Made by a program: the position numbers and the translations under genes | Shown: positions 1,201 through 61,522 of the stretch, piece by piece | Layout of the letters: the number at the start of each line of letters is the position of its first letter | Position numbering within the stretch: position 1 is the stretch's first letter | The notes under the pieces: generated by a model | What the model was told of the DNA's origin: nothing | What the model saw: only the letters and a program-made list of their open reading frames with translations | The model's database searches: none | Source of the DNA: Apostichopus japonicus | Lineage: Eukaryota | Assembly (NCBI RefSeq): GCF_037975245.1 | Contig: NC_092564.1 | Span: 11,359,891 to 11,423,890 of the forward strand | Length of the DNA: 64,000 nt | Direction of reading: 5' to 3'

Positions 1201-1483
1201 TGTGGTGGTTATTCCAGACATTAATCAAAGAAAATGTGACGTAGGCTATTAATATCAGAGCTTAAGTATTTCGCCATGGCATAAGTCTCAGCATACCGGT
1301 TCTTAAGCTAATAATTGAGTAGAGCTTGATATAAGTACTTCATACCCGACGAATCTAAGTGTTTTCTACATAACGATATCTCAAATAACAAACTTAAAAG
1401 AAAGAGAGTAAACACAAACGGAGGTACAATGGAAATTTTTTGATATAAACACGTATAGAACTAAAACATTAAGCTTTTTCAAG

Positions 1484-20544: not shown

Positions 20545-20721
<177 letters not shown>

Positions 20722-26135: not shown

Positions 26136-26204
<69 letters not shown>
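26136..26204. repeat. (TA)n microsatellite, left flank of hairpin element copy 2
   Basis: Direct read of the sequence. Confidence 0.95.

Positions 26205-26208
<4 letters not shown>

Positions 26209-26418: not shown

Positions 26419-26420
<2 letters not shown>
26205..26420. mobile_element. Small hairpin/palindromic element, copy 2 (full ~70-bp perfect arms) flanked on both sides by long (TA)n
   Basis: Same 56-bp head, then a perfect palindrome centred at about 26338: '...actagtggaacactagtagttgttactcggagtttcacgcgttatagcgatcttcagacaac|tgttgtctgaagatcgctataacgcgtgaaactccgagtaacaactactagtgttccactagt...'. Confidence 0.75.

Positions 26421-26506
<86 letters not shown>
26421..26506. repeat. (AT)n microsatellite, right flank of hairpin element copy 2
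   Basis: Direct read of the sequence. Confidence 0.95.
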
Positions 26507-26512
<6 letters not shown>

Positions 26513-32300: not shown

Positions 32301-34906
32301 GATGGAGATAAAAATCTGTTGATATAGAGTAATTCGGGGGCCAGGAGAATTAAAGATTAGTGTATTCTCATTTTCAGAATATTATAAAGAAACATGAAGA
32401 GAGCTAAAAGGGGGCCAGTGTACATAATTTCCACTCCCTTTCCCTCCCCCCCTTGGGGGCTCCATCTGGCTCTCAATGCCTCTACCTTCCCTAACAATCT
32501 CTGGATGTAACGTATTTGCACGGAAGAATGACTCTAAGCACTATACCATCTACCAAAAGTACCCTAATTAGCATTGATAACATGCTGTGAAAACTCTCTG
32601 TTTGTTGAGACAGCTAACAAGTGTGATTGTGATGATTTTATCTAAATAAAATACTGAGATTTTGCAATTCAAGTAGTTGAATGACTATAATTTGTCTTAT
32701 AATGGTGGTGAATGGAATCACAAAAGATGACTATAATTATTATAATTCATGCAGAAAAAAAAAGAAAGATATATCATGCTCAGATAATAATGCAACATAC
32801 TGACATTGCACATATGAATATATGTTAATGCATATTAAAGTCAAACATTTCATAAACAAGCAGTATATACCGGTTCGAATACTTTTTTTTTTTAAATAGG
32901 TTTTGGTCTATTGCACTCCTATATTAAGGCTATATATTAGGACTAACAACTTTACTAACAATTGCAAACTTGCACCATTTCACATGGAAACAAATTTGAA
33001 AAAAAAAAAATATGTCGTGGACAGACCTATGATTACTCGTTAACACATGTAAAAGTACCTACTGGACATTTGGAAAATGCAATAACAAATGTTTTGGTAA
33101 TGGCTTCTGGCAAGTATTCTCAAAGCATTCATTATTTTAATGTCCTGATATCTCTTCACATCAAATGTTATACACAAATTCAACCGCAAAAGTAGCTGTA
33201 ACTATGACAACATGTATATTTAGAGTATTCTATTGCACAGTCTGAGAGTACTTCAAATCAGTTCCAGGAATTTCCTGGCGAATACAATTCTATACACTAT
33301 TTATATTAGCATGGTATGAAACTTCATTTTGGGCTATGAAGTTGATTGCACTGAACTTTGTCCTAACAGAGATTGTAATAATCTGTCGTGTGTATAAATA
33401 TAGATGTATATGTTGGTTGAAAAATTAATCAAGAAATAAATATTATATCCACATTTTCATAGTATTTTGTTTTACGTAAACATTAAAGTTTCACTCTGTT
33501 ATATATATATTCAGATTGCACATGAAATTTCTGCCTATTTGCAGTATTTGTGTTAATTAATTTGAATTAAGTCGTATAAGTTAATATGAATGAAAAAGGA
33601 ACCCTCTATGGGACATCTCTTTGTGAGAGTTATATAAAAACAACAAATTTCTAAATTTATTGGAGAATAAGTTTTTTGGTCACAGAATAATTTTACGGAC
33701 AACTTCTGCAAATACATATTTTTGGTGATACTGTGATATCTGACTGCATTGTTGAACATAGTAACATCGTTCAATATGATAGAATAATTAGGCATGCTCT
33801 TTTCTTCTAAACACACCACAATTGCAAAGATGACAATATCAAGCACTTAATTAATCATCTCAAAATGAAATTATAGCAACGAATTTTTCTTTTTTTCTGA
33901 TTGCAATATCTTATGGTGTATTTCTAAAACATTAGGAAGACCAAATTTGGTAACAAAGTTGTAATAATTTTGGAGTGAACAATAAAAAGAGGAACATATA
34001 GAAACTCAATGATAATAATAATAATTTTTTATTTGGCGAAATCAAATAAATTTCTTTTCAACTGAAGTCATATCTGTGCAACACATAAGGAACTTAAAGA
34101 AGCAAATCCTCTTAAATTGAAATGACAGTGATTTTAGACCAAAAACAAAGAAAGAACAATGGAAACAACTTTCAACAAGGGGAAAACTTACAAGATAAAT
34201 GCAGAACGTAGAACCTGCGACGACTATATGTCTAGACTTGTTTTATTTATCAACGGCATGGCGGTGACAGAATGGAGAACCTTTTGTAGAGGGCAGCCTA
34301 CAGTTCTGTCCAATTTTGGTTCGGCCACTACAAAGAGTCCTTTGAGGCGAAACAGGTGTCACCCTATAGATGAAATTCAGAAAAGGAGAAAAGAATTATT
34401 TTACAGAAACTGAGATTTAAGAATTTAAGGGCTGAAGCAAGGCAGAGTTATAGCATGGCTTTAAATCAGACCAAAATCGAAACAGGAAATGGGGCAGTGC
34501 CAGTAATGTTTCTATAGCAATCCTGGGTTTTAAGATTTGAAGGAGGGACTTTTTGGCAGAAGTTTAGTCATGATACATTATAGTCCAAGACAAAACACAA
34601 GGAACCATGTAGTGTTGGTAATGTTTCTACAACTATTCAACAGCGGTTTTCAAGTTGTTAACCTCTTAATTATCCTGATTATCCGGGATGCTCCTTGAAG
34701 GCTAAATCGAAATCAATCGGACGATGACATCAGCTCGTCACAACAAAAAATTAACACGATTTATGGAAACACAAAAAAACACAGGGAGGTATAAGTCAGT
34801 ATACACAAAATGCTAGTTTCTTCAAAAAGATTTTTAAGTTACTCTTATAGGGGACTGCCCTTTCATATGCATGTGTTGTTATTTTCTATGTGATTTTCAG
34901 TTGCAC

Positions 34907-35033
34907 TTACTTTGAAGTATTTTTCGCAGAGTGAGGACTAACAGGGATACTCTCTAACACCGAGCTTAGATTTCTCTTGGCTACGTTAACCTCGTCGGCA
35001 AGATCTTTCTCTGGAGTGGCAGCAGCAGATAAT
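34907..35033 (-). CDS. Candidate terminal exon K of the - strand gene (tentative)
   Basis: Acceptor 'ctctttag|ATTATCTGC'. The only open frame is '(R)LSAAATPEKDLADEVNVAKRNLSSVLESIPVSPHSAKNTSK*', which is exactly the phase required if exon J ends at 38671. No canonical AATAAA lies nearby. Confidence 0.3.
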
Positions 35034-37099
35034 CTAAAGAGAACAAATAAATTTAAATTAAAGACAAAATACCAATAATAACAAACAAAAGCTGGCTACA
35101 AACATCCCACATATTCCCTTCTTCCCAAATCCTTCCATCATTTTAGAACCAAATGCAGTATACAAACTAAATGCAATTATTTTCCAAAGTTCACTGACAA
35201 AGTGTAGTCACAGACTAGTGGTCAGGTGGATAAATACTCATATATACGCATGCCCAGGAGATGACCAAAATTAAAAAACTTTTGACCTTCAGGTGACCAT
35301 CTGTTATATCATAAAATGAGCCACAGGTTTAATCGACCGTGACCTAATAATTAATGCATCGTTAGTCTTTGGTCAGGGTCATTTGGGAGAGAAATTGAAC
35401 TCTCGTGGGATTATTCCACTGTCAAATCCAACAAATACCTTTTTACTTTTATTCGGATATACAGACCAAAATGGTTCGTTTTATCAAATTTTAATTCCTT
35501 TCAGCTTCGTTACATTTATGCCATTAATTTGAACTGGTCTTGACCAATGAAGAATAGCCTGGAGGCTTAAACACACACACACACAAGAAAGAAACAGCTA
35601 AACAGAATGACCAACCGAGAGAGAAATGAACAGCCATGGACATTAGTGAGTTCATCAATGGTAATCCGGCCTTGCTTATTATGAAGGTGCTTTGGACTTT
35701 TTTTCAAAAGAAAATAGTTAGGACATGCAGTACTTTCAACAATAAAGTGTAAAATAACCAAACGTTAGAAAAGGCAATTATGCATATTACTTCACAATGC
35801 CTCTAAATGTAGTCAATTTCCCATTTCCTATCAATTTCCCTGTCAAAAAAAGTCAAGCATTGCAAGAGGGCATGAGTACAGGCCACTTGTTTGATAATAC
35901 AAAGCGCAATTTCTTCATTTCACATCCAGGATATTAATAATTTTCACTCAGTTATTCTGAATACGTAGACCTTGAAATTCACTGAAAATAAATCCATTTA
36001 GGGGACTAACATATCCTTTTTTACCAAGCACATTACAAGCATACAAGGTTTCGTTAAAGAATAGTTGCAAATTTTCCAAGCAATCGTCTTTTTTCGTTGG
36101 AATGTCAGGATATCACATAAATTTTTCACCTTCAGCTGAAGGCAATTTTCCAAAGGAAAAAATCAAAGTGGTGGAAAATGTTTACAGAAAAGGCAGAAAA
36201 ATGGGAACATGAATACTTTTCTTCCACATGTTACAATTAGCATATTCTGAGACAGAAAAGATAGATAGATAAACACAGAAATATCATACAGAGGTATTTC
36301 ACACAGCCCTGCTTAAAGCAGCATTTTGCGTCCTTTTCTATGATTTTTCTCAACCGTACTGACTCCACTATGCCATAACGAGATACATAACTAGCTTATC
36401 TATTTAAGTCTTACTTCAAATTGGGGCATAAAAGTAAAAAATTTGCAACTTTCAACTTTGTTTTTCTCCAAAATATTTTCCGTTGGGATCCCAATAAACC
36501 TCACCCAGAATATGAATATTTAAACACTACGAACGTCATTGACCAACACGTAATGCAACACCATGCTTGATTTGTGTAGTCTATATGGCAGTTGTACAAG
36601 TGAGTTCCATAACAACTCCCTGGTTGTACCAAAGTCTTGGATCTATATTTAGCAACGGCTCATAACTAAACCTGCATCGCTGATTGGTTGAATTCAAACT
36701 AGTGGGTTTGGGGGAACTGTAAGAGATTAATTTTAAAAGTGGAATTTGTCGTGGACACTTTTCTCATTATCTTCAAATATCCTTAATTACGCAGGGAAAA
36801 ACTAATATCTTAGTTTGCTGTTTTGTGATTGTTATATGTAAAAAACTTGATGGACATGTCAAAAAAGTAGAAAATGGCGACCAAACCCAAAATGCTGTTT
36901 TAATAGCTGCTTTCTTTCAGAAAAATCACTGAACAATGTTTGAGCCCTGATCTAGTTTGAATCTAGTATTGAAATGTAATAACCAAGATCACTATGAGGG
37001 AGGAACCTCAACCAATGACAACTTAATTAAAGGGTCACAAAAGTGGTGTCGGTGATTTTTTAACTAAAAACAAGTGGTATGACCACTGACATCTATTTG

Positions 37100-37625
37100 C
37101 TGCTCATTGCCGTTCACTTAATCTGAACCCTGCAATGGTTGTTCACACAAGTAGGGTATTATGAGGGCTATACCTCGGAGGCCAGAGGAGATGAGAGAAG
37201 GCTTTAAGAGGTTACTATGACCAAGTACTTAATTTGAATCCTGCAATGGTTGTTGACACAAGAAGGGTATTATGAGCGCTATGATACCTCCGAGGCCAGA
37301 CGAGATGAGAGAAAGCCTTAAGAGGTTACCAGTCAGAGGTTATTACAATGAACTTACTTAATTTGAATTGCATGGTTGTTCACACAAGAAGGGTATTAGA
37401 ATGGTATTATGATGGCTAAAGATCGGAGGCCAGACGAGATGAGAGAAGGCTTTAAGAGGTTACTATGACCAAGTACTGAACAGAAGAGGTTACTATGACC
37501 AATCTGAACCCTACAATGGTTGTTCACACAAGTAGGGTATTATGAGGGCTATATCTCGGAGGCCAGATGAGATGAGAGAAGACTTAAAGAGGTTACCAGT
37601 CAGAGGTTAGAATGAATCACAGAAT
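37100..37625. repeat. Tandem satellite, ~125-bp unit x ~4.5 ('gaaccctgcaatggttgttcacacaagtagggtattatgagggctata.ctcggaggccaga.gagatgagagaaggctttaagaggttac...')
   Basis: Unit starts fall at about 37120, 37237, 37365 and 37490. It lies downstream of exon J of the - strand gene, intronic only if the tentative exon K is real. Confidence 0.85.
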
Positions 37626-38107
37626 TATGACAAGATTCTCAACATCGAGAGCAAGAAGATGAAGAGAAACGTTTATTGTTATAGGAGAGACTGTGCAATG
37701 GATGGCAGAGTATATTTGGTGGTCACTGTAGGCTATATTGTGTATATGGTGGTCACTGTAGGCTATAGTGTGTCAGAGGTCACTACCACTAATAGTACAG
37801 CCGAGTGTCTTGTGGTCAAACTTCTTTTCACACCATACTATCACCCAAGTAGAACAAATAGTGTATTGATTGTACTTCACTCAAACATTCTTTAGGGTAA
37901 ATAGTCACCAGGGCCCATATGCAATGGGGGTGGGATGGGGGTGCACGCACACTTTTTCGATGGCTCTTGTGCTACAGGAGACATTAACTTTAGCTTTGTC
38001 AATTGTCGCATACGGTTGCAAAATACAGTGAATTCAAGGAAGCAACCTTAATTAAGCAGAAATAGATCCTCCTCATATGACAGTGTTCAATTAAACTTTG
38101 CCAACCT

Positions 38108-38310
38108 TTGGTAAATGCTGCACTAAACCATAGAAAATTCCGCACACATGCCTGTCTGCAACTCTCACAATTTTCCCAACCTTCCGTAAACACACCAGTG
38201 ACACCACTTACCCATAGAAAATCCTGCACACATGCCTACGTGCCACTCTCACAACTTTCCCAACCTTGGGTAAACACACCACTAACCCATAGAAAGTCCT
38301 GCACACTTTA
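38108..38310. repeat. Tandem repeat, ~75-bp unit x ~3 ('acccatagaaaatcctgcacacatgcct.cgtgc.actctcacaa.tttcccaacctt..gtaaacacacca')
   Basis: Direct read. It generates antisense pseudo-ORFs 37999-38229 and 38108-38338. Confidence 0.8.
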
Positions 38311-38670
38311 CCACAATTTCACATTATTGTGGGTGTAAGACACTTTGTACTGTGATGACATTGTACTGTCGTGAAATGTCATCACACACCCATACCCAAA
38401 GGTACAGGGTGTTTTAACATCATAGCCAGCACCATACAGTCATTGGTAGAAGTGTATACTACTGTCATAGGTTACCCTGTACTCTATGCACAGACTATGT
38501 TCAGTTTGATCAAACTAGAATCGTAACTTGTATCGTGTGCCTTCTACGTGCAGTGCTGAAGTATATCATGATTTGTTAGGGTTAGTAATGAAAATATGAT
38601 TTCCAACAATGTTGAGGTAAAATGTTTAATTTCCACAATTATCCACTGGTGATGGATGATGAGCTTATAC

Positions 38671-38883
38671 CTTGACAGATTTTGCACCATTGTGGCACCG
38701 TGTAACTTGCTGGTATCATTGTCTTTCTGTCTCAGCAGGGAGGCCAGCTCGGCGGTCAGTGTGGTCTCGTCTCTCGTCCACAAGGATGAATCTTTATAGT
38801 CCTCGGTATCATCCTCTTTATTAAAGTCAGGAGTATTAGGAATTTGGGTAGAATTTACAGTCGCAATTGTCTCATTGATTTGA
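38671..38883 (-). CDS. Exon J of the - strand gene (acidic, N-glycosylation-sequon-rich tail). It is either spliced at 'AAG|gtataag' or it is the terminal exon reading through to the stop near 38544.
   Basis: A strong polypyrimidine acceptor 'ctacttttccttttgatag|T' restores the frame from exon I (GT+T=Val). Translates as '(V)QINETIATVNSTQIPNTPDFNKEDDTEDYKDSSLWTRDETTLTAELASLLRQKDNDTSKLHGATMVQNLS'. The nearer 'atatacag' acceptor would hit an in-frame TAA. Confidence 0.5.
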
Positions 38884-40589
38884 CTATCAAAAGGAAAAGT
38901 AGATGGCAGAGTAAGAAAACCAGTTATCTGTATATTCTTCCCCCACCCCACCCCCCACCACAGTATTCTTTTCTTTCCAGTGTTACTACTACCATTGCAC
39001 CATCTTGTTGAAATGTATGAGAGTATGGGATTCATCACACAGGCTCATTAGTAGAGCTGCATGTACAATTGGTGAGATGGCGCTGTTCCTGAATCTGATA
39101 AAGGAATGTTTCCAATCCAATCTCTCATAAAGTGGTATGAGACAGGTGTGGATCACAGGGGGGAAGGGGAGGGGGGTAGCCTGTAGTACACACTCCCTTT
39201 TCCACCACATGCAAGAAATTCAAAGTAGTTAGTATACCAACCTTGCAAGTAGACCTAGAATAAGGGCATAATTTATTGCCTTAATATGCCTCAGGTTGCA
39301 TCATTTCACTTCTAATCTTTTATACTTCCTTCCTGGAGGGGAAGGACCCCAGGACCCCCTGAAATGACAGCTTCAGCAGACCACACACCCCTATCTCCTT
39401 AAAATCATCGTCCATCCCCCTGCCCCCCCTCCCCGAAAGGAAAGCACACCTATCCGCATATCGGTAGTGTTAGAAGTTAGAACACATTACATGAGCAAAC
39501 CATGTCTAGACCAATGGTGGAAATGCTTTGATTTTTTTATCTTCCTACCACTTCAAATCGAATCAGGAGTAATTATGTGATTTGCATCAATGTGGTTCTT
39601 GTCACTGCCTCTGCGTTGCACATATCTGACTTTGTTATTGCTTTATAATGTCTATGACAGTTAGAGCAATATTGCTGGAACTTTTAACATTTTTTTCCCT
39701 TCTTCAAACCTTTTTTGATCTTTAGTTTCCCTCCTATAGGTGGCAAGGATGTCACACTAGATCTGTTACCTTTTTTTAAGTCTTTGAATAAAACATCATA
39801 TCTTCTCCTTTGACTTACTTCAAAACATTTACATTTTATAGCTTTAGGGTTTCTTCTTTACTTTAAGGGCAAAATTTTTGGAAGGAGTATATATTTGCCA
39901 TTTCATTTCCTCTTTTGTATAAAGAGCCAAACTTAATATGGATTAAGTTACTTGTTACCATAAACCGCTTAGAGGAAGCAATTTCCTTCAGGCAATGACT
40001 TAGTGCCGGGTTCCATGAGAAGTATCAAGATAGGATATTTCACCCGCATCAAATTTGCCCTCCTTTATCTCTTTCATGGAATGAAAGAACGAAAAGTATA
40101 GTCAGATTTGCAGATTTTTTTAATAGGGGTTTTAATATCTTCAGTCTTTAAGCTGTCATAAATATTAATAGTCTTTCAAAATGATCTTCATGAAGAAAGG
40201 TGGATTTGAAATTTTTTTTCACTTGGATCAAGTTACAACTGAAATTGTCAGGTGACAGCTGACAGACAGTTCTCACACATTGTTAGAGAACTGTTCAAAT
40301 ATTCCACCTAAGGGAAATCAGCCAAGTTTATCATGCAATGTAGATTTCTGTCCACGATAAAGAAAAATCCAATCAGATGGCAACATGTTTTAAGCCTTCA
40401 AATGAATCTTTGTCACTTTTGCAAAACAAGACAAGAAAGTTTAGTCTCAGACTAGAAAACATTCATAAAAAAAAAGGTTGCTAGATCAAGACGAGCTTGC
40501 ATAGCCTCTTATCTAGAAAGGGCTTTAGTGGTTATGAGCAACTGACACTCACTTTGTAGTCATTATTACAGCAAACTGCAACTAAACAA

Positions 40590-41090
40590 ATACCAGCACA
40601 CGCTAAATGTATCATTTGTATTTACTTGAGGGGAAACGGTACCATTTGTAGTTACTTGACGAAATATTTAATCGATACTATTACTTGAGGAGATATTGTA
40701 CTATATAGTTACCACAGAGTAATACCTGAAGTTCCTGAACCAACAGTTACCAATAATACAGTATTTAGTTTCTTTTGGGAACCATTTTAACCATGTATGT
40801 ATACTCACTTGAGGGTAGAAAGATATAAGCACCATGTGTAGATACTTGAGAGAACATTGTACCATGTATATAAACTGTAGGGAATATAAGATATATTTAC
40901 TCAAGGAAACAGTGCACCATATGGTAACATTATGGGAACATGATTTTATACCCTAGAGTTACCTGATGGAACAGTTACCAATACTGAGTAGTTTACTTTG
41001 GTAGCATTTTACCATGTGTGGACTTACTTGAGGGTAGAAAGAGAGATATGCACCATGTGTAGTTACTTGAGGGAACATAGATGTCATTTA
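40590..41090. repeat. Tandem repeat region with recurring 'tacttgagggtagaaaga(g/t)ata(a/t)gcaccatgtgtag(a/t)tacttgagggaaca' modules (two ~190-bp higher-order units)
   Basis: The 'ttacttgag' motif recurs every 40-60 bp. The higher-order units at 40700-40880 and 40920-41090 are about 80% identical. It is intronic to the - strand gene. Confidence 0.75.
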
Positions 41091-41099
41091 GTCCCTTCA

Positions 41100-41800
41100 C
41101 ACTACAAACGCATAGCTCACATGAAGTATCAGGCCAGTTGATATTGGGAGGGGCTTGGATAGCTGCTTCTGATCCTGAGTGGTGTATACTCTCATCCTAT
41201 GAGGTTATCTATCTCTGCGAGATCAGACTCAACTCAAAAAGGGAGGTCTAGTTTGCTAGATCTCATCCTGATGAGTCCATTCTGTTGTCTCGAGTACAGC
41301 TCACTTACAGGATCAGAACAGAGGAACTTTCTATGCTGAATATGATCCTCAGCCATGACCATTTTCCCAATAAAGGATCCATCCAGCTCTCAGGTCAGAT
41401 TTGATCCAATCCAAAAATGGAGATCTGGCCTAGAGTTGTAGCTCAGTGCAATAATAGATCTCTTGTAAGACCGGATCAGATCCAATCTTTACGGGGTAGG
41501 TGGATCTGATCATGAGTCCTGCTTGTTCCTACACTGAACTGTATCTCCCTGGCAAGATCGTCCCCACCCCCCCCCCCTCACAAGAGGAGAAATGGATTGC
41601 TCAATTTGATCTCAGAGCCCCGTGAGTTCATCAATTGCTCTTGTTTAGGATCAGACAAAATCCCAAAGGGCGATCTATGGATCTGATCCTGAGCAGTTCA
41701 CACTATGAAAGATATCTCCTTTGCAAGGATCAGCTTGTCTCAAGAAGGAGAGAACCTAACTTCCTGGGTGTCATCTTGAGTTCATTTGTTTTTATCCTAA
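41100..41800. repeat. Degenerate satellite built on 'gatc(c/a)(t/g)ga' / 'ggatcagatcc' cores (~100-120-bp units)
   Basis: Short modules recur, including 'tgatcctgag', 'ggatcagaac', 'ggatcagatccaatc', 'ggatctgatcatgag' and 'ggatctgatcctgag'. It is intronic, directly upstream of exon I. Confidence 0.6.
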
Positions 41801-41956
41801 TATATATATATATATTTTCTAATTCTATCACAGGATCCTGATTTTTCTTTCTCGATGGGGAATGTATGATAAATGGATACAAGGATCCTTAGACAAAACG
41901 AAACAACAATACAGAGAACTGAAGTGGCTAATGTTGATAGTTTGTAGAATACTCAC

Positions 41957-42074
41957 ACAGGTTGTATAGGAGAGAGTTTCAGGGGACTACCACCTCTACA
42001 GGTTAGGCATTCTTTGGGTGATGGAGGAACTATGCTCTGTGATCTGTGTCTACCATATTGAATGCCAACATTTG
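41957..42074 (-). CDS. Exon I of the - strand gene (Ser/Pro-rich linker)
   Basis: Acceptor 'ctttcag|CAAATG' and donor 'CCTGT|gtgagt'. Translates as '(A)NVGIQYGRHRSQSIVPPSPKECLTCRGGSPLKLSPIQP'. It ends in phase 2. Confidence 0.6.
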
Positions 42075-42398
42075 CTGAAAGATAAGAAGAGTGACGAAAT
42101 GTACGGGCCCAATATCTAACACAAAGAGGTGAACATTTCAAACTTGAGACATATTATTGTCAGAATCATATTGTTAGAATCAGTTTGCTGTATTTTAAAG
42201 CTAATGGAAGGCCTTTTACTGCAGACTATTACTAAATAGAAAGTGACATAATCTACAATAGTAGAAATATCATTTACCAGGGTTTAATAAAGATTGTATA
42301 TTGGGGCAGACCTCTGTTAATATAGTATATAAATTGCATTTTGGGAAGCTGGGATGAAGGAATAAACAATAAAAATGTCATGTTTAAAATTGAACAAA

Positions 42399-42605
42399 CC
42401 TGATACAATGGTAAAGATTACTATGGTGAGGGATGGGTAATCCAGACTGTGGCCGTGATTGATTTCTGCCAAGGCATTCAGAGGAACCAAGAAGATGACG
42501 AGAAGTCTGGAGGTCACCGGAGTACCAAGAAATGTCAGGATGAAAGCGGCCAAGAAAAAGAAACACGCATGGAAGACGCATGTCACCAGCAGGTCAAGAC
42601 TATTA
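42399..42605 (-). CDS. Exon H of the - strand gene: hydrophobic transmembrane hairpin exon
   Basis: Acceptor 'gtttacag|GTAATA' and donor 'GTATCAG|gtttgt'. Translates as '(G)NSLDLLVTCVFHACFFFLAAFILTFLGTPVTSRLLVIFLVPLNALAEINHGHSLDYPSLTIVIFTIVS'. It has two or three membrane-length hydrophobic runs. Confidence 0.65.
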
Positions 42606-44313
42606 CCTGTAAACGCATAAATTATAACAAACAATAAAACATAATTTACATGGTCAAAACTATAAACATGCGATTAACAAAATTGAAAAACAAACACATG
42701 CTACAAATAATAATATTGGGTAGGTCAATATTAAGCATCTGTTAGTATGTAATACAACAGAAAGGGAAAATGAATTACATAAAAACAACATAGGTCAAGA
42801 TTTTTTACCTATGAATATATATTAAAAATTCATGACACAAGCAGGGTCCAGATCATATTGACTTATATTGCAATAACAACAATGTATTTAACACAGGGAA
42901 TAATGTCTTCCCATTCAGCTGGCAGGTTTGAGTTTTGTGAATTTCCTAAAGTTAAGAAAAGAAAAATACTGAAAATTGTATGGTTTTGAAAAAAGAAAAC
43001 CTATTCTTCATCTTACGATTTTTGTCACAATTTTGCCACATTTGACAGGGGCTACAACTAATCCAGGTCAAGAATTAATATTTTAGATTCAATGAAGCCA
43101 TTTTTGTTCTGTAATTTTTAATTTTCTGATTAATATGGATCCGTCTGAAACAAATGTTTTCACTTAATTTCTACATGGGCTAGGCCCCAGGGAAAAAACA
43201 TAACTTAGAGCAAAGGGTTGGACAAATGAAAACTCTTACCTAGATTGAGCAAGGTGCCAAGGGTAGGCCAATAGGGTACTCTGGCCAGATGTGGTCCACA
43301 GGCCAGGTATTGAGAACCCCCCTCCTCCGCCCCAGTCTAGAATACCTTGGGCAACAACAGAATTTTGTCTTTTCTAGCATGGTTAATCTATATTGTAATC
43401 ACATGTCTACATTACTGTAGATACTCATATACAGGTAGTGATGGCATTTTGTAGCTACAACGAAATGTCGTTAATCAAATTTCACGTCAAGCCGTTTCTC
43501 TGCAACAAACTTTTCTTTTGATATGTTGGTCAGGTCAAACTAGGGGGTGTTTTGGTTCGAAGGCTTCTTATACAGCTGCAAGGCCATATGACATGCTCTG
43601 CATATAAGATGTAAATGTGGCTGTGACTACTTTACACACTTCAAACAAATAAATATCCTTAAAGGGTGTGTATGACATTTGGTTTGTTCAGAATATACCT
43701 TAAAGACACTGCTCCATCATTGCCTCTATCACATTCAGCAGTTAATTTTACATTATCCCTTTAATTTTATGGATCGTCACAGTTCATGAGTAACTACCAT
43801 GGGGTCATGGTGAATTAGTGATTACCCGTTACCTTCTTCCAAAAGGGGTTCAAATCCAACCATGAGAGATAATCTTTCATGGATCTGTTGCTGTTAGTTT
43901 GATATTATTTGCTGATCTCCCTTAAATCATTTAAGGTTGTGACTGACAAATCCAAAACATCCCAGGGGTAATGAATACAACACAACCACCCAGAGAAGAT
44001 GGGCAATTGCAGTTTATGTACAATCCTGTCCCAATGTTACCGATAAAATCGCAGTCAGGGTGAGTCCATATCTTGATATCTGGCTGCAATCAAACACATT
44101 CAACAAACAAAAGAAGCTAATTGTGTCTTCCTTTGGACAAATATTTTCAAACTTTGGAATTCAGAGTGCAAAGAGATTTTAGGATTGACAAGTCCAAACA
44201 TTACTGTTCTTTCACAGTTAAACACTGAACATTTAGTTTTTCACATCCAGCTTTTGAAAGTCAGAACAAGATCATTGGATTCAGTGAGGCCCAATGGGTT
44301 TCCGTGTACATAC

Positions 44314-44493
44314 CAGCACCACCGAGAAGAGAGGTGACCCAGGTCAGTTTCTGGTCAATGCCTACTTTCATCTCTCCGACGGTACCCAGCAAGAATGAGA
44401 CCGTTTGGTTGACCACTAAGAGCTTCTCTAGTGTTTCTTGGTAATAATTTGAGCTACCTTTCTGGAAGCTAAGGACCTCGTTGAAGTTACTGT
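44314..44493 (-). CDS. Exon G of the - strand gene
   Basis: Acceptor 'ttctttcag|ACAGTA' and donor 'GGTGCTG|gtatgt'. Translates as '(D)SNFNEVLSFQKGSSNYYQETLEKLLVVNQTVSFLLGTVGEMKVGIDQKLTWVTSLLGGA'. The phase is consistent. Confidence 0.65.
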
Positions 44494-45391
44494 CTGAAAG
44501 AACCAAATGAGACTTAATGTTGCAATGAGTCAGAGAATTACTGGGACGATTTTACTATACAAACGTACAGATGTATTGTAGTTATGTCCCCCAGAAACTG
44601 AATCATTTGATTGTTTTGGGGGTATGCAAAATGCATAACCTGACCGTAGGTGCTTCAAGCATATAAACGAAGATGAATTTACTTTGAGAGGAAAATATGC
44701 CTCTTCTTTGCCTGCATTTAATTTGATATAACTTGAGCAAAGGCTGAATGAATGCACGACAAGAAATTTTGGAGTCACAAATAATAAAAGAGAGAGAAAA
44801 GAATATGAACCTGGGCATAGTTGCACAAATAAACAGTTTCAATAAGAAATGGTCGGTCTATCTATGCTTAACGGAATATCTCGTTGGCAGACGAGAAAAC
44901 AAGTTTTTAATGAAAAGGGTGAAAAAATCCACAATACTAGCTCAAACCTCATCTTAATATATTCCACACTGTTAGCTGAAAACCCCATCTAAATAATTCT
45001 TTTTCCGTAACTCAAGATATGTTTGAATGAGGGGAACCTATTTTGACTGGTTGAAACCTCCTTTACCCCAGGAAATGGATCATAAAAAGTGGACTGTAAT
45101 GATGACATCATTTACTCTGATGTTGCCAGATACAAAAATTATCAAAAAACTTAAACCAGTAATATCTTCGCCATAGAAAATCCTATAAGGATCGATGCGC
45201 CTTTTGCCTAAAGATACAGAAAATTTCCAGACATTTTATCAAGTAAACAACTTCAGCCATCCAGAATTATCTTAGACGATTTCCCATTCAGTTCTGGGTT
45301 TTGACTCCTGAGTATTTGACCCTAATACTCACTGCCCATTAGGGGGAGGGGGGGGGGGGAAGAAATGATTTGATATTGCTGATTGTCTCAC

Positions 45392-45508
45392 CTAACTGCT
45401 CAATAAGTGCCTTTGTTCGGTTCTGAATCCTGGCTAAATCCTTCATGAGGTCCTTCCTGTACTGCTGACGATCAATATCTTGTTCTGAGAGTTGATGGTT
45501 GGCATTAT
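45392..45508 (-). CDS. Exon F of the - strand gene (coiled-coil-like)
   Basis: Acceptor 'attttcag|ATAATG' and donor 'CAGTTAG|gtgaga'. Translates as '(D)NANHQLSEQDIDRQQYRKDLMKDLARIQNRTKALIEQL'. The phase 1 to 1 transition is consistent with exon E. Confidence 0.62.
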
Positions 45509-46122
45509 CTGAAAATATCAAGATCTGGATATTTAGATCAAGCCAAGTTGGTGAATATATGGGAGGGCAGAGATGAAAGTAAAGGCATCTTGAGGGATGG
45601 AGTAGTGGAGAGGAAGAAAGACATAACTTGTATTCATGTGCTCCTTGGCCAGAGTATTATGGGCATCCCCATCCACTCACCCATCTGTAAGGATCTTGGC
45701 ATTCTAAGCTGGTATCAGTGTGTTTATTTCTTTAGATTACAAGCCAACACAAATTTCAGCGCAGCCATTGTTGCCACGTTTACATCTGCTACTTGGTGCT
45801 AAGCATCCTAAATAATATGATTACAAACTGATTGTTACAAACATATGATGGGATCAATTTAAGCTGTTCTCGGACTTTTTATGAATTAGATAATAGGCAT
45901 TACCAGTCTTGTAGTAGTAGTACAACAGCAAGAATACAAGTAATCATCTCCTTGGTATGAGTACCAGTTTACACTTCCAATAGTATTTATACTCAATTTA
46001 AAAAAATTCTCAAAACGCACAAGGAGTGGAAATCTGAGAGGGTGGGCAAGAGTACTGGCAAAATATGCTAGAATATGAGTAACAGACTCATCACTAGTCT
46101 GGTCACTACGGATATGGCTCAC

Positions 46123-46240
46123 CAAGTTTTCTACTAATGTTAAACGCCATAGCAGCCAGTTCCTTGTGTCCAGCTGCAATCAAAGCTTTCTCGGTCATTA
46201 AAGTCTCTACACTACCGGCGAGGCCATCCTGTAGTTCCGT
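46123..46240 (-). CDS. Exon E of the - strand gene
   Basis: Acceptor 'ctctgtcactccag|ACGGAA' and donor 'AAACTTG|gtgagc'. Translates as 'TELQDGLAGSVETLMTEKALIAAGHKELAAMAFNISRKL' plus 1 nt. It ends in phase 1. Confidence 0.6.
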
Positions 46241-47388
46241 CTGGAGTGACAGAGAAATGGGAGATCGGCAATGCTATCAACTTTTGCACTGTGATGTGTA
46301 CCAACTATCATATACAAAACATATTTACTGGTGTGTTTATGTAAGGGTGTGCACGTTTGTTTTGTAATCTGACCGAGGACTTGAACAAAAGAATTCCAGG
46401 TCCTGGGTTGTGATTTCTAAAGAATCACCACATCCTCAGAAGAATTCTAAATATTGTATAGGGTATTGTTAAGGTTAGGGTACGTGGATTTGAACAATGG
46501 AAAAAACAATGGAGTCCTCGGTCTGAATGTAAAACACATCTGTGTGCGTGAGAGCGTGTGTAACAAAATTAATTACTGATACTTTTGCTCTTCACAACAC
46601 TGTCCTCTTTTGCAAATTAAGGGATATTGTGTCAAGCAACATGTATCCATCTCATTACTTTTAAAAACGATACATTTTCAAACAGTTTGGGTTTTGGTTA
46701 AATGCTTTAAGCTGAAATGATCCTTGGCCTCATTTCCCACTTTCACATCATCTCAAATATAAGAGTAAGACATGGTCAAAATCATCCAATTACCAAATTG
46801 TATAAAACCTACCAACTTATTTGACTGGCAGAATCCATCAACTACAATCAGCCTTAATGCCAGATCAGTTAAAACTTGAAGTTACTTCAGTTTAAATGCA
46901 GTCCTCAATTTCTCTGTTTAGGTAAGCAACTTTTCCTTTTCTTTTTGAACTAAAACAAAATCATGCCAGTTGTCATTGATGGTGTAATATAAAGCTCAAA
47001 GCCACTTCCTTTTATATGTCATTTTATTTCATTTGGAGTTTTACATTGTTTCTAGCAAATTTGTTAACGATATAATGTACTGTTTATGAAAATGTTAACA
47101 AAACAAAGTGGTTTCAACTATGGAATGGACGATTACTTTGAAACTTTTCCAAAAACCTGAATGAACCTTTATCTTGAACTTCCAATGTTTACATGAATCA
47201 TGGTTATACATTTCATGTTGCATTATGTATTGAATTTGCTTTTATCAGGTGGTATAGTTTTAAATGAAATATTAATATATCATATCTGAAAACAATCTTT
47301 ATATTACTTTTGTCTACCTAGACTTACAAACGGAATAGTTCCCTTTCAAACAAAACCGAGGTGAAATGGTTTGTTTTATTTCCTGTAC

Positions 47389-47493
47389 CTGAGTTAATTT
47401 CATAGATTCTTGAGCTGTCATCATCTCTTTGTGACCCTGGGTCATACCCTCTAGGGTTTCCTCTGCAACTGACACAAGTTCCTGTTGATGTTG
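47389..47493 (-). CDS. Exon D of the - strand gene (coiled-coil-like)
   Basis: Acceptor 'tgtttacag|CAACAT' and donor 'ACTCAG|gtacag'. Translates as 'QHQQELVSVAEETLEGMTQGHKEMMTAQESMKLTQ' (35 codons). Confidence 0.6.
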
Positions 47494-48308
47494 CTGTAAA
47501 CAAAAATGATGAAAACAAAAAATAATTCATTCACTTATACAAAACTTGCATCTATTTAACATTGACTCCTTATCAGAGGAATTAACCTTTGTTGGACATC
47601 TCTTGTAATAATATAGTCCTTAATCATATTTATGAGCAAATTGCTACTTTAATATTTCTTGTCAAAGCTTGTATCATCCTTATTCCAACTTCGACTACCT
47701 GATGATTAAATCTTGTTTCCTATTAGAGGGAAATCATCACATTACTTCTAATATCATAATTTGTATGACAGAGGTCTGTAATTCCCGTGCATTCTTTAGT
47801 GGCCTGACCATTATGAAAGGTAGACTCTTTGGATGGGAGGGGATTAAATGCCTGGCATCACTTAATTTATACCAACCCTGTTGGAGCTGATTTATGTGAG
47901 CAGATAGAAGAAACTGTGTAATCATCAACCCGCTGCACTTCTGATATCAGAAAGAAACTGGTTTAGAAGCAATAATTAATAGGTTCACTGCAATTGATCC
48001 AATAAAGCTACTTCAAATACCTTTTGGGCAGTAGCATAAATTTGTAGATTTTGTCCAAAGGGAGGAGGGTTAGAAAATCCAAGTACTTAGTCTACTACAC
48101 TTCTAGTAGTAGAATGACAATAAAGCCCCCCCCCCAAAGAAGACATGCCTTGGGTGCATACATGGGCAAAGTTGTGATAAAAGGTCACCAGGTCATTCTA
48201 GACATGCTACAGTGAGGATGCTGTGGTTTTTAGGGAACAGGTGAGGTGAGAGAGCACTTATATGTAAATTCAACATCTTTTGACCATATTTAGGACATAA
48301 AATATCAC

Positions 48309-48494
48309 CTTTAGATGTTCCATGAGATAAAGTTGATCTTCGGCGCTGCTAGCCAGCTGACTAACAGCAAACTGTGTCTGTCTTTGGAACTGTTGCTGTC
48401 TTACAGAGTAACAGACTGACCTAGCTCTATTGCTGACTATGAGGTAAGCGTTCCATGTATCAGGATCCATCGGTTTGGTGCATTGTGCCACGGT
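48309..48494 (-). CDS. Exon C of the - strand gene
   Basis: Acceptor 'tgtctttag|ACCGTG' and donor 'CTAAAG|gtgata'. Translates as 'TVAQCTKPMDPDTWNAYLIVSNRARSVCYSVRQQQFQRQTQFAVSQLASSAEDQLYLMEHLK' (62 codons, phase 0). Confidence 0.65.
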
Positions 48495-48748
48495 CTAAAG
48501 ACAACATGAGAGAGAGAATAAAAAGGGCATTCTGTGAAATTTACACTGTCAAGTTATCAGATTAAACATGCTCTTCAAATACAAAGTTCTTTATGTGAAA
48601 ATAAGTTCAGTGACCTTCACAGCTTTGGTGGGTGAACTAGCTAGTTTTGAGCTATTGAATAAGAAATTTTGGCTTGATTTTCCATTTTTGAGTATGCAAC
48701 CATTTCTTTTCAATGCACTGCTATTCTTGGAGGCCTACTGCTACATAC

Positions 48749-48877
48749 CATGTCTGGATTGCAGGGATATACTGTTCTTCCTTCGGCTTGGGATTGACAG
48801 TTCAAGAGAGCTACACCCAGTTTGGCTAAGTCTTCCTCGGATATAGCTGTACATGCAGACTTAAGCTCTGAGACCAC
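48749..48877 (-). CDS. Exon B of the - strand gene
   Basis: Acceptor 'aattttcag|GTGGTC' and donor 'GACATG|gtatgt'. Translates as 'VVSELKSACTAISEEDLAKLGVALLNCQSQAEGRTVYPCNPDM' (43 codons). It is in phase with exon A. Confidence 0.65.
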
Positions 48878-49009
48878 CTGAAAATTGAACAAATCAATCC
48901 TTAATTGTAAATCACAACCATCCCCGACTAGTTAGTAATACTTAATGGATTGCTTAAAGGCATTGAAGACTCGACCCAAACCGTGTGCGGCCATCTGAAA
49001 AAGTTAACT

Positions 49010-49320
49010 TTCTGTTGCTTGCAAGTGACATTTTGTTTGTGTCGCTACAAATGCAGACAGTAATGAAATGTGATACCTTGTTATCTTTAGCTGGACCTGA
49101 GATGTCCATCGCTGTATTGTTTGTATACTGTGCTGCGGGTATTGACCGCATCTGTATGTACTGCTAGACACTAGTGTCTAATTATCGACAGTAGCAAGTT
49201 GTTTACGTATTTTCTGGGATCGATGGTGGTGTTTAGCACTTCTGTTACACCTCATTCGAAACTAGGTCAAATTACCGACATCAGACATTTCTTTTTGCGC
49301 GAGTCTTCACACCCTTCAAT
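49010..49320 (+). repeat. tRNA-related SINE-like repeat, copy 1 (~155-bp core 49165-49320 plus ~150-bp 5' extension)
   Basis: The core is '...gtattttctgggatcgatggtggtgtttagcacttctgttacacctcattcgaaactaggtca...gagtcttcacaccc'. It contains a box-A-like 'tggtggtgtttagcac' and a box-B-like 'ttcgaaact'. It matches the copies at 51113-51415 (-) and 51425-51578 (+). Confidence 0.6.
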
Positions 49321-50058
49321 TACCAAAACTCCAATCAGCTTACACGCATATTCTCAAGTTTATTCAAATTCTTAAACACTTTCCAACTTGGTAAACAGCA
49401 ACAGACTCTCTGGAAGTTTGAAACTCTTTCATACCTGTAGTTGTTAAGATCTGAGCCGACTTTGTCCCTAAATTCCCAAACTCTGCAGAATGAACCACTC
49501 ACACATATTGACAAGATTACTAATAGGTAGGCCTAAGTATCAGCAACTAGCCTATGATAAATTTCCATAAACTACTTCTTCATTGAAAAGGTAAGACTGA
49601 GAAACATACATATTCAATTAGGCCTTATAGCTGGAGGATATGAGCTTTGATTCACTCTTAGACTGATGAGTTAGTTCTATGAAAGTATGATCTCATTTTC
49701 AAAACATCCCACTTGGAAGCACTTCTAATTTTTAAAAAAATATTTGGTGGTGCTTACAAATGGAGAAACATTTTCAAGCACATTTTGATCGATTTAATGT
49801 TGCCTTCATCAGCAGGGTATACTGTAATTAATTATTGGCCTATCCGAAAAAGTTACACATTGGCATTACCTAGCTTCCTTAGGCCTCTAGGCTAAAGTTG
49901 GGCCAAAGTAAGACTAACAAACATGAAAGTCATGAGGCCAAGGTAACTGATCTACAGACATAGGCTAGTCTAATTATGCAATAGTAATTAGTATAGCTTA
50001 GGCTATGCCTAGTACCAAAGTGAAACTTCTATTCGACTTTTAAGTTCTTTCGTATTAC

Positions 50059-50325
50059 CAGCAAATGACACTTGTCTAGTTCTGACATCCTGGCTATCAA
50101 ATCCCTTCCAGATGCAGCAAACTTTTCGTCGATCGTTTGCATTTCAAACTTGCTGTTTCTCAGCTGCAGGCTTTCAGGATGATTTGATTTGGATGAATCA
50201 GCCTGAACATTTTCTGTTGGTGAATCGTCATCAAGGTTACTGCCGAAAAACCAGTCCAAAATAGATTCAGACTCTGCAATTAACACAAACAGTAAGATGA
50301 TATTCAACAATTTCAGGAAATACAT
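50059..50325 (-). CDS. Exon A (first coding exon) of an uncharacterised secretory/coiled-coil/TM protein gene: signal peptide plus N-terminal region
   Basis: Translates as 'MYFLKLLNIILLFVLIAESESILDWFFGSNLDDDSPTENVQADSSKSNHPESLQLRNSKFEMQTIDEKFAASGRDLIARMSELDKCHLL' (89 codons, phase 0). The donor is 'CTG|gtaata'. A hydrophobic h-region follows the Met. Confidence 0.65.
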
Positions 50326-51112: not shown

Positions 51113-51415
51113 GAAAGAGTAACTTAAAGGGTGTGAAGACTCGCGCAAAAAGAAACGTCTAATGCCGGTAATCTGACCTAGTTTCGAATGAGGTGTAGCA
51201 GAAGTGTTAGACACCATCATCGATCCCAGAAAATACACACACAGCTTGCTACCGTCGGTAATTAGACACAAGTGTACAGTCACTGCATACAGCTGCGGTC
51301 AATACCTAAAGCACAGTGTAGCCTATAGACGATACAGCGATGGACATCTCAGGTCCAGCTAAAGATAACAAGGTATCACGTTTCATTACTGTCTGCATTT
51401 TGTAGCGACACAAAC
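51113..51415 (-). repeat. SINE-like repeat copy 2, inverted relative to copy 1. With copy 1 it brackets exon A and the 5' flank of the - strand gene.
   Basis: The reverse complement of 51113-51415 aligns to 49010-49320 over about 300 bp at roughly 85-90% identity. Confidence 0.65.
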
Positions 51416-51424
51416 AAAACGACT

Positions 51425-51578
51425 GTACACTAGTGTCTAATTATCGAAGGTAGCAAACTCTATGCGTATTTTCTGGGATCGATGGTGGTGTCTAACACTT
51501 CTGTTACACCTCATTCGACACTATGTCAGATTGACCGGCATTAGACGTTTCTTTTTGCGAGAGTCTTCACACCCTTTA
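51425..51578 (+). repeat. SINE-like repeat copy 3 (core only). It forms a ~150-bp-arm palindrome with the adjacent copy 2.
   Basis: 'actagtgtctaattatcgaaggtagcaaactctatgcgtattttctgggatcgatggtggtgtctaacacttctgttacacctcattcgaca...gagtcttcacaccctttaatg' is the reverse complement of 51113-51262. Confidence 0.65.
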
Positions 51579-54295: not shown

Positions 54296-55186
54296 AAAGA
54301 GGCGCGATGGCTTGGCGCACTGTACGAGCTAATGATCGAGATCCTCTTTGGGATCCGTGGTTCGAACCCCGGTGATGACGTCTTTTGCCGATCTTTTACA
54401 GCTCGTGCCTACACGGGGAGCTGTGAGTATTAGTTAATCCATCTAATATCTCAGTCCATACAGTGGCGCGATGGCTTGGCGCACTGTACGAGCTGATGAT
54501 CGAGACTCTCTTTTGGATCCGTGGTTCGAATCCCGGTGATGACGTCTTTTGCCGATCTTTTACAGCTGGTGCCTACACGGGGAGCTGTAAGTATTAGTTA
54601 ATCCACCTAATATCTCAGTCCATACAGTGGCGCGATGGCTTGGCGCACTGTACGAGCTGATGATCATCTCTCTTTTGCATCCGTGGTTCGAACCCCGGTG
54701 ACGTCTTTTGCCGATCTTTTACAGCTCGTGCCTACACGGGGAGCTGTAAGTATTAGTTAATTCACCTAATATCTCAGTCCATACAGTGGCACGATGGCTT
54801 GGCGCACTGTACGAGCTGATGATCATCTCTCTTTTGCATCCGTGGTTCGAACCCCGGTGACGTCTTTTGCCGATCTTTTACAGCTCGTGCCTACACGGGG
54901 AGCTGTAAGTATTAGTTAATCCACCTAATATCTCAGTCCATACAGTGGCGCGATGGCTTGGCGCACTGTACGAGCTGATGATCATCTCTCTTTTGCATCC
55001 GTGGTTCGAACCCCGGTGACGTCTTTTGCCGATCTTTTACAGCTCGTGCCTACATTGGGAGCTGTAACTTAGTTAATCGGCATAATATCTCAGTCCATAC
55101 AGTGGCGCGATGGCTTGGCGCACTGTCCGAGCTTTTGAGCGAGACTCTCTTTTGCATCGGTGGTTCGAACCCCGGTGACGTCTTTT
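54296..55186 (+). repeat. Tandem array of six ~162-bp tRNA-like (SINE-head-like) units directly 3' of the LINE
   Basis: The unit reads 'acagtggcgcgatggcttggcgcactgtacgagctgatgatc...ccgtggttcgaa(t/c)cccggtga(tg)acgtcttttgccgatcttttacagctcgtgcctacacggggagctgtaagtattagttaatccacctaatatctcagtccat'. It has D-arm-like 'gcgcgatggcttggcgc' and T-loop-like 'ggttcgaatcc'. Unit starts fall at about 54301, 54466, 54626, 54788, 54947 and 55107. Confidence 0.8.
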
Positions 55187-60261: not shown

Positions 60262-61041
60262 GTAATTTGCTTCCTTCCTTCCTTGTTCAACAAAGAGGGC
60301 ATTTGCTAATGAAGCTAACTGCTGTGCACTAGAAGGAACATTTTTTATGTAACGGGCAGGATAGCGAGTATAGCTGCTTTCACTTCTTAAATGGCGAGAT
60401 AAGTTGAGGAGTTTTTGAGGCTATTTTGGAGGTAGGGCAGATCGTCAATATAGACTCTTATCATATGGAAGTAGTGTTCTCAGTGTTCCACTGGTTGTTG
60501 TTTCATATGGAGGTTAAGCAACTTCAACTATAAACATTTGAAATTAGAAAACAACATGGATTTGTGATTAAGATCATAATTGTCACACTGGAAGATTATA
60601 AAGCCCTGTTGCCTTAAAAGTTGAGCAATCTTGGAATGCTTACACTATTTTGCTAGTTGCACTAATCTGCTAACAAATTCACAGCATTGAGCATATTGAG
60701 CATACACAATGCATTCAAATGAAACAGTGCGAGAAATACTTATATGTTTTCGGTGAAGCAGTGACAGGATTAAGACAAATGTGTCTGTAGCCGACATATT
60801 GCGTGGTTGTTACTCAAGGCCTATTTCACTGTTGGAAAAACATTTTCATAATTGTAATAAGTAACAAAACAACACTGTACTTGTTGCACACAAAAACCTT
60901 CCATAATTCCATCTGGTTTCTAAATATGTGCTTGCAATAAGCCGAACCTGTTCTACCAATCAGGTATTCATTCAAGTCTGCAAACGTTTTTTAATTGTGT
61001 TTATATCTTTATTTTCACAAGATCGTTTCTCTTTAACACAG

Positions 61042-61329
61042 GACCAACTATCAGCTGCCGATGTTTGCCTTTTTGCTGCCCTCTATCCGCTGTATGCCAA
61101 CAATAAATCATGCTTTGAAAATTTTTCAAATCTGAATGCCTGGTTTACCAAACTTCATGCTGAACCACCATTTGGAGCTTCTGTTGCCAAGGTGACAGAA
61201 GGAAAAGGCAGCAGTTCACTGAAAGCCTCCATCCTTGCTCAACCATTGGTCAACACTCTTCCAGTAGCGAGGAGTGTGTCTAATGAGAAAGGAAAGTCAT
61301 CAAAAGATAAAGAAAATTCAACGACAGAG
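61042..61329 (+). CDS. MARS1: MetRS exon 5 (end of GST-like domain plus linker)
   Basis: Acceptor 'aacacag|GAC' and donor 'GAG|gtgagg'. Translates as 'DQLSAADVCLFAALYPLYANNKSCFENFSNLNAWFTKLHAEPPFGASVAKV...', matching human '[52 protein letters not shown]'. Confidence 0.85.
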
Positions 61330-61522
61330 GTGAGGCTTACAATTTAAAGATTTATTGTCTTCTTAAGAATATTTCTGCTCTTCTCACTGGTTTGTTTAAG
61401 TATGATTGTTTGAAGTATTTTCTATAATACCAAATGGTTCTCTTGTACATAATGTGTTTTATCAAAGCATTTGGTTGCCATAGTTACTGATATTAACATG
61501 TGTTCATGATCAATTTTTACAG

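Follow-up and report, generated by a model that had tools for sequence, protein, structure and literature searches.

Does the DNA between positions 34907 and 50325 of a 64,000-nucleotide stretch of the genome of Apostichopus japonicus, a sea cucumber, hold a real gene and, if so, which one? The stretch (contig NC_092564.1 of assembly GCF_037975245.1, positions 11,359,891 to 11,423,890 of the forward strand) is hereafter called the window, and positions are counted from its first letter. An earlier note, made from the letters alone, had proposed at this locus an unannotated gene of 11 exons, encoding a protein of ~590 residues whose layout resembled the nuclear-envelope fusion proteins of the KAR5/Brambleberry/GEX1 family. 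We conclude that the gene at this locus is very probably the A. japonicus ortholog of brambleberry (bmb), which represents the KAR5/GEX1 family of nuclear-envelope fusion proteins in animals.

The assembled product was compared with existing records by an exact-sequence look-up. The 627-residue product proved to be XP_071825528.1 (isoform X1), and the 556-residue product without exon J proved to be XP_071825529.1 (isoform X2). RefSeq lists the two as 'protein brambleberry-like isoform X1/X2 [Apostichopus japonicus]'. A search with the 436 residues encoded by the first eight exons (the query) matched RefSeq isoform X2 with 100% identity over 100% of the query (E = 1.9e-282) and returned 330 homologs, almost all of which are named brambleberry. 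The locus is thus not unannotated, as had been assumed, because RefSeq already carries both proteins; the gene is already known and is correctly named there. That the gene is real was borne out, since its spliced product agrees with a RefSeq protein at 100% identity and at least 330 homologs exist. A chance run of open reading frames in non-coding DNA would be the most trivial explanation for the exon chain. It is excluded by the E-value of the match to the RefSeq protein and by hundreds of animal homologs with E-values below 1e-80.

The homologs include Brambleberry (Bmb) proteins that have been studied before. The Holothuria homolog was 71% identical to the query (E 1e-198), those of sea stars, urchins, a brittle star, and crinoids were 44-50% identical, and that of Saccoglossus was 41% identical. 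Xenopus laevis Brambleberry (P0014, KX588242, 644 aa), a protein found in egg membranes (PMC5288655), shared 42% identity with an E-value of 9.9e-101 and 94% of the query covered. Identities to amphioxus, shark, and teleost sequences were about 37-42%, and Bmb of Danio, Cyprinus, and other fish matched with E-values of about 1e-87. The alignment to the studied Bmb proteins was co-linear from the signal peptide through the C-terminal motif. At about 40% identity over their full length, the zebrafish and Xenopus proteins share with the sea cucumber protein the signal peptide, the domain with six Cys residues, a helix motif EKALIA.G, three hydrophobic helices with the residues C377, H380, R401, and N411, and a C-terminal C-x9-C-x10-C-x2-H module. 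They differ in the tail that links the membrane region to the C-terminal module: a short helix excepted, it cannot be aligned outside the holothurians, and in the sea cucumber it includes exon J, annotated as a cassette exon.

The gene model was rebuilt from stop-free segments and splice motifs. It extends over positions 50325 to 34243 of the minus strand and comprises 12 coding exons, A to L (Table 1), with a coding sequence (CDS) of 1884 nt for the 627-residue product. All 11 introns are of the GT-AG type, the reading frame is continuous, and exons A-K are each bordered by a polypyrimidine-AG acceptor and a GT donor. Directly upstream of the ATG of exon A lies an in-frame stop codon. Exon A, which ends at a GTAATA donor, is identical to the corresponding part of XP_071825528.1; behind the signal-peptide-like segment it encodes a linker of low confidence, after which the Cys-rich domain begins (F60, E61, C86). 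Omission of exon J, 213 nt in length, leaves the frame intact and yields the 556-residue product. The earlier note had delimited exons A to J and a candidate exon K, and all of them were found again on the minus strand, bordered by canonical GT-AG sites and with the frame preserved. The junction phases, 0,0,0,0,1,1,1,1,2,2 over exons A-K, were exactly matched on rebuilding. The totals of 11 exons and ~590 residues had to be corrected to 12 and 627, respectively, as the terminal exon L, outside 34907-50325, had been missed. The 3' end had been placed at 34907 because the donor of exon K was read through into a false TAA stop. The window as a whole is AT-rich, with a GC content of 32-44%.

Is the locus possibly a decaying or unexpressed copy, that is, a pseudogene for which the RefSeq models are prediction artefacts? 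The contig look-up gave no record for either isoform product. In the older A. japonicus annotation of 2017, the locus appeared as two separate proteins, the 352-aa PIK60224.1 ('putative protein brambleberry') and the 149-aa PIK60225.1 ('hypothetical protein BSL78_02853'), which the newer RefSeq models unite. However, the 1884-nt CDS is intact over 12 exons with 11 canonical introns. Two homolog alignments were available, one of 19 and one of 77 sequences, and all residues that are invariant across the 77 homologs are retained in the sea cucumber protein. Furthermore, the identity to Holothuria is graded by domain, with 93% in the Cys-rich domain (the block encoded by exons B and C), 75% in the transmembrane (TM) region, 70% in exon L, and 45-56% in the tail, as purifying selection predicts. 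Exon J, with 45% identity to Holothuria leucospilota over 69 aligned residues, marks the lower end of this range. We therefore regard a pseudogene as highly improbable.

According to the literature, the KAR5/GEX1/Bmb family is defined by a signal peptide, an N-terminal domain with six conserved Cys residues, the sole region whose sequence is conserved, coiled coils, and two or three C-terminal TM domains (PMC4291462, PMC7586128). All four features are found in the sea cucumber protein. Six Cys residues had been noticed in the first ~190 residues; they are located at positions 86, 98, 116, 128, 137, and 160, corresponding to a spacing of 11/17/11/8/22, and are invariant in the 77 homologs. The N-terminus is signal-like, as judged by simple heuristics. 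A hydrophobic core (L6-I16) comes directly after K5, the Kyte-Doolittle value KD19 is at least 1.6 for residues 1-24, and small residues at positions -3 and -1 create cleavage-like sites after A17, S19, and S21. The earlier note had likewise described a cleavable-looking signal peptide.

The other defining features were apparent in structure predictions with AlphaFold2 (AF2) on the basis of the 77-sequence alignment. The Cys-rich domain was modelled as a confident helical bundle with predicted local distance difference test (pLDDT) values of 87-97. It is followed by very long helices at 143-250 and 258-394, further hydrophobic helices at 398-416 and 424-449, a disordered tail at 453-593, and a small C-terminal module at 597-627, which reached a pLDDT of about 93 in the full model and of 80 when modelled alone. 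Within exon J, a helix was predicted at 518-527. The long helical stretch agrees with the coiled-coil region proposed before, and its heptad periodicity exceeds that of shuffled sequences. The a/d contrast was 0.41 versus 0.28±0.04 in shuffles (z 3.4) and strongest at 260-291 and 335-363, these figures coming from a periodicity measure and not from a dedicated coiled-coil predictor.

The relation to the fungal and plant proteins is more distant. Pfam family PF04163 (Tht1-like), which the earlier note had named as a check, gave no match at E-values up to 10 for the sea cucumber protein or for 29 of its homologs, 19 aligned and 10 divergent ones. The same Pfam scans, run with the 436-aa draft and the 19 + 10 homologs, returned sub-threshold noise only, for example, PRY and DUF families. 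PF04163 has been used as the Kar5p ortholog set (PMC4291462) and was apparently built on fungal Kar5/Tht1 orthologs. We read the failure as a limited coverage of the model and not as an exclusion from the superfamily. Because of this negative result, the deep link was tested by Cys spacing and profile comparison. In yeast Kar5p, the Cys residues are located at positions 56, 68, 91, 105, 116, and 141 (PMC4291462), which corresponds to a spacing of 11/22/13/10/24. The first interval, C-x11-C, is identical to that of the sea cucumber protein, and the later ones are similar. For plant GEX1, a comparison with the profile of the Cys-rich domain in hhalign gave a probability of 96.2% and an E-value of 2.3e-9 over 135 aligned columns, with the six Cys residues and a 'GRP' motif in register. 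A profile of this domain made from deuterostome and horseshoe-crab sequences retrieved 822 representative clusters at E ≤ 1e-3. Among the matches listed, which are the best 150 of the 822 and reach down to E 1e-22, were sequences of dipterans, stick insects, a gastropod, and the choanoflagellate Salpingoeca urceolata; fungal and plant members were not among these listed matches.

Likenesses and differences to both groups can be specified. GEX1 of plants, Chlamydomonas, and Plasmodium has a homologous Cys-rich domain with a spacing of 11/19/12/8/22-23 and the same order of signal peptide, Cys-rich domain, coiled coils, and C-terminal TM segments. It is described with three TM segments (PMC7586128), in agreement with our proposal for the sea cucumber protein (see below). 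In contrast, identity in the Cys-rich domain is only about 20% and undetectable elsewhere, and the C-terminal CCCH motif (three Cys residues and one His) is absent from the three plant sequences. Kar5p/Tht1 of fungi shares the architecture, the six conserved lumenal Cys residues (PMC4291462), and the proposed role in nuclear-envelope fusion. Apart from the lack of a detectable match between PF04163 and the sea cucumber protein, Kar5p differs in having two TM segments and a lumenal C-terminus, in its site next to the spindle pole body, and in recruiting Prm3p, which is not conserved (PMC4291462).

Several points weigh against our assignment. Isoforms X1 and X2 are computational RefSeq models, and the PF04163 scans were negative. 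The GEX1 side of the hhalign comparison consisted of three plant sequences taken from a supplementary alignment (PMC9324357) in a machine-read PDF, so that errors are possible. Foldseek, likewise suggested in the earlier note, gave no meaningful match of the full AF2 model in the PDB: the best E-value was about 1, the matches were generic helical bundles, and no solved structure was alike. A sequence search of the PDB with the protein and with the C-terminal profile yielded nothing meaningful either. The RefSeq name, the matches to the Xenopus and fish proteins, the invariant six Cys residues, and the GEX1 profile match nevertheless uphold the original guess of a KAR5/Brambleberry/GEX1 protein.

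How is the protein arranged in the membrane? A C-terminal TM hairpin had been postulated. The hydrophobic exon, exon H, is indeed present, but the region holds three conserved hydrophobic helices and not two, namely H1 (370-394, with invariant C377 and H380), H2 (398-416, with invariant R401 and N411), and H3 (424-446). The best 15-mer of each helix has a mean Kyte-Doolittle value of ≥1.6 in at least 97% of the 77 homologs. Across the family, the loop between H2 and H3 is net acidic, and the 20 residues behind H3 contain on average 3.7 Lys and Arg versus 0.6 Asp and Glu residues. The three conserved helices together with the basic stretch after H3 indicate that the tail and the CCCH module probably reside in the cytoplasm or nucleoplasm. 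We consider it fairly probable from these sequence properties that the protein spans the membrane three times with its tail and CCCH module on this side, as described for GEX1. If the three-pass topology is right, the NxS/T sequons of exon J would stay unglycosylated. Two other N-glycosylation sequons, N336 (76 of 77 homologs) and N270 (66 of 77), are conserved and precede H1, on the inferred lumenal side.

An alternative within the same gene and family is that no more than two of the helices cross the membrane, for example, if H1 and H2 form one long or re-entrant element. The tail would then be lumenal, its sequons would be accessible to glycosylation, and the terminal Cys residues would be engaged in disulfides rather than in zinc binding. 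The loop between H1 and H2, which bears the invariant R401, is only about 3 residues long, and sequons are denser in the tail than in the lumenal part (1.55 versus 0.77 per 100 residues), both as this arrangement would have it. Moreover, two TM domains have been assigned to Kar5 and Bmb, and three to GEX1 (PMC7586128), and the C-terminus of Kar5 is lumenal (PMC4291462). However, all three helices are strongly hydrophobic in almost every homolog, the positive-inside rule assigns the basic stretch after H3 to the cytoplasmic side, and the H2-H3 loop is acidic. The three Cys residues and one His at the C-terminus have a spacing typical of CCCH zinc fingers and match, albeit weakly, CCCH families of nuclear and cytosolic proteins. 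Certain homologs of Kar5, for instance Tht1 of S. pombe, possess an extra hydrophobic domain that results in a cytoplasmic C-terminus (PMC4291462). On balance, two membrane passes appear unlikely. Against the three-pass topology count the two TM domains given for Bmb in the literature and the fact that hydropathy, together with the positive-inside rule and the CCCH motif, forms the basis of the proposal, the cytoplasmic tail included.

The tail begins with a Ser/Pro-rich part encoded by exon I and continues with the acidic, sequon-rich part encoded by exon J, in the order given by the earlier note. At its end, the C-x9-C-x10-C-x2-H motif is present in 70 of the 71 homologs whose C-terminus is complete, over a range that runs from echinoderms to vertebrates and arthropods. 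The C-terminal module matches CCCH families weakly. DUF5763 was found in 15 of 22 C-termini (best E 4e-5), and the others were zf-primase, zf-TRM13_CCCH, and WRC; the sole bit score reported was below the curated cut-off. The sea cucumber module itself matched none of these four families. Taken with the three-pass topology, these observations lead us to suggest, tentatively and at slightly less than even confidence, that animal Brambleberry is a three-pass protein whose disordered tail and basic CCCH zinc-finger-like module face the nucleoplasm or cytoplasm. The lumenal fusion machinery would thereby be connected to chromatin, to nucleic acid, or to a partner in the cytoplasm, and in holothurians the cassette exon J might tune the tail. 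Only the conservation of the C-terminal CCCH module, the probable three membrane passes, and exon J as a cassette may be mildly new.

The exons and the other features of the window are compiled in Table 1. Rfam and tRNA (ARAGORN) scans of the 64-kb window found nothing.

Table 1. Exons of the brambleberry gene and other features of the window, listed in the direction of transcription of the gene
Feature	Position	Strand	Length	Residues	Description
Open reading frame	60928-61347	+	139 aa		Glutathione S-transferase C-terminal-like domain (PF00043, E 8e-5; PF14497, E 9.5e-5), then Lys/Ser-rich stretch; probably exon of a neighbour gene upstream of the bmb start
Satellite-like array	54301-55186		159-bp unit		5.5 copies, 94% identity; unit contains tRNA T-arm-like GGTTCGAACCC
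Partial repeat copy	51421-51500				Partial copy of the ~270-nt repeat listed next
Interspersed repeat, inverted copies	51124-51400 and 49049-49319		~270 nt		Arms of 77-152 nt, 89-95% complementary; flank exon A and putative promoter region; probably similar to a miniature inverted-repeat transposable element or a short interspersed element
Exon A	50059..50325	-	267 nt	1-89	Start ATG at 50325; signal-peptide-like segment, residues 1-19/21
Exon B	48749..48877	-	129 nt	90-132	Cys-rich domain (C98, C116, C128); conserved NCQ..EGR motif; phase 0; pLDDT 90-97
Exon C	48309..48494	-	186 nt	133-194	End of Cys-rich domain (C137, C160, TWNAY..SNRARSVCY block) and start of long helix
Exon D	47389..47493	-	105 nt	195-229	Lumenal, helical, coiled-coil-like; within AF2 helix 143-250
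Exon E	46123..46240	-	118 nt		Helical; invariant EKALIA.G motif; junction phase switches to 1 afterwards
Exon F	45392..45508	-	117 nt		Helical; strong heptad periodicity, residues 260-291
Exon G	44314..44493	-	180 nt		Helical; heptad periodicity, residues 335-363; carries sequon N336
Exon H	42400..42606	-	207 nt	about 368-436	Hydrophobic helices H1, H2, and most of H3
Exon I	41957..42074	-	118 nt	about 437-475	End of H3, basic juxtamembrane stretch, Ser/Pro-rich disordered tail
Exon J	38671..38883	-	213 nt, 71 aa		In-frame cassette; acidic, sequon-rich; short conserved helix TAELASLLRQ
Tandem duplication	38121-38281		84-bp unit		1.9 copies; in 3.6-kb intron J-K
Tandem duplication	37713-37773		30-bp unit		2 copies; in intron J-K
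Exon K	34911..35033	-	123 nt	about 547-587	Disordered tail; true donor AAA/GTAAGT
Exon L	34243..34363	-	121 nt including TAA stop	about 588-627	Terminal; acceptor ...atctatag; basic C599-x9-C609-x10-C620-x2-H623 module
Microsatellites	26419-26509, 26136-26205, 20548-20714				Long (AT)n and (TA)n
Open reading frame	13196-14497	+	433 aa		ATG-started, longest in window; Ser/Arg/Asp/Glu-rich; no Pfam match; may be a single-exon gene or large exon of a neighbour gene
Open reading frame	9084-9635	+	183 aa		hAT-family C-terminal dimerisation domain (PF05699, E 1.7e-8); probably hAT transposase remnant or domesticated copy
Satellite-like array	3592-3903		144-bp unit		2.2 copies, 97%
Satellite-like array	1475-2341		184/365-bp units		82-83%
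Satellite-like array	176-1203		141/280-bp units		About 7 copies, 70-73%

What, then, might the protein do? Zebrafish bmb is cited as a strict maternal-effect gene that encodes a membrane protein of the nuclear envelope, needed to start envelope fusion between pronuclei and between karyomeres (Abrams et al. 2012, cited in PMC4003239 and PMC7179931). Yeast Kar5p acts in nuclear-envelope fusion, and its conserved Cys residues and first coiled coil are needed for the steps up to inner-membrane fusion; a lumenal coupling of inner and outer membrane by Kar5p, possibly via disulfides, has been proposed (PMC4291462). GEX1 is required for the fusion of the polar nuclei and of the sperm nucleus (PMC7586128). 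Judged by its orthologs in zebrafish (bmb), yeast (KAR5), and plants (GEX1), the gene probably serves the same function in the zygote and the early cleavages of the sea cucumber. A cleaved signal peptide would send the N-terminal two thirds of the protein into the lumen of the ER and the perinuclear space. This lumenal part would consist of a helical Cys-rich domain stabilised by disulfides, together with about 200 residues of long helix that bears heptads. The three hydrophobic helices would anchor the protein in the nuclear envelope, and the disordered tail of about 150 residues, ending in the small CCCH zinc-finger-like module, would face the cytoplasm or nucleoplasm. The protein is probably maternally supplied and concentrated where nuclear envelopes touch, and probably required there for envelope fusion, both of the pronuclei and, in the rapid early cleavages, of the karyomeres. 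Membranes would probably be coupled or bridged from the lumenal side by the Cys-rich domain and the coiled coils. It speaks against too firm a reading that both the function and the maternal supply in echinoderms are deduced from orthology.

Genome annotation gains nothing from this analysis, because RefSeq already holds both isoforms under the correct name. The outcome illustrates, however, that a reading of the sequence by itself can lead to a correct model of a multi-exon gene and to the right family. For true fusion of the pronuclear membranes, echinoderms are cited as a classic system (Longo and Anderson 1968, in PMC4003239), and a clean echinoderm Bmb ortholog is a reasonable reagent for testing nuclear-envelope fusion by the KAR5/GEX1/Bmb family. 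The conserved three-helix membrane region and the CCCH module, if on the cytoplasmic or nucleoplasmic side, would suggest that the lumenal fusion domain is linked to partners beyond the lumen, which can be tested.

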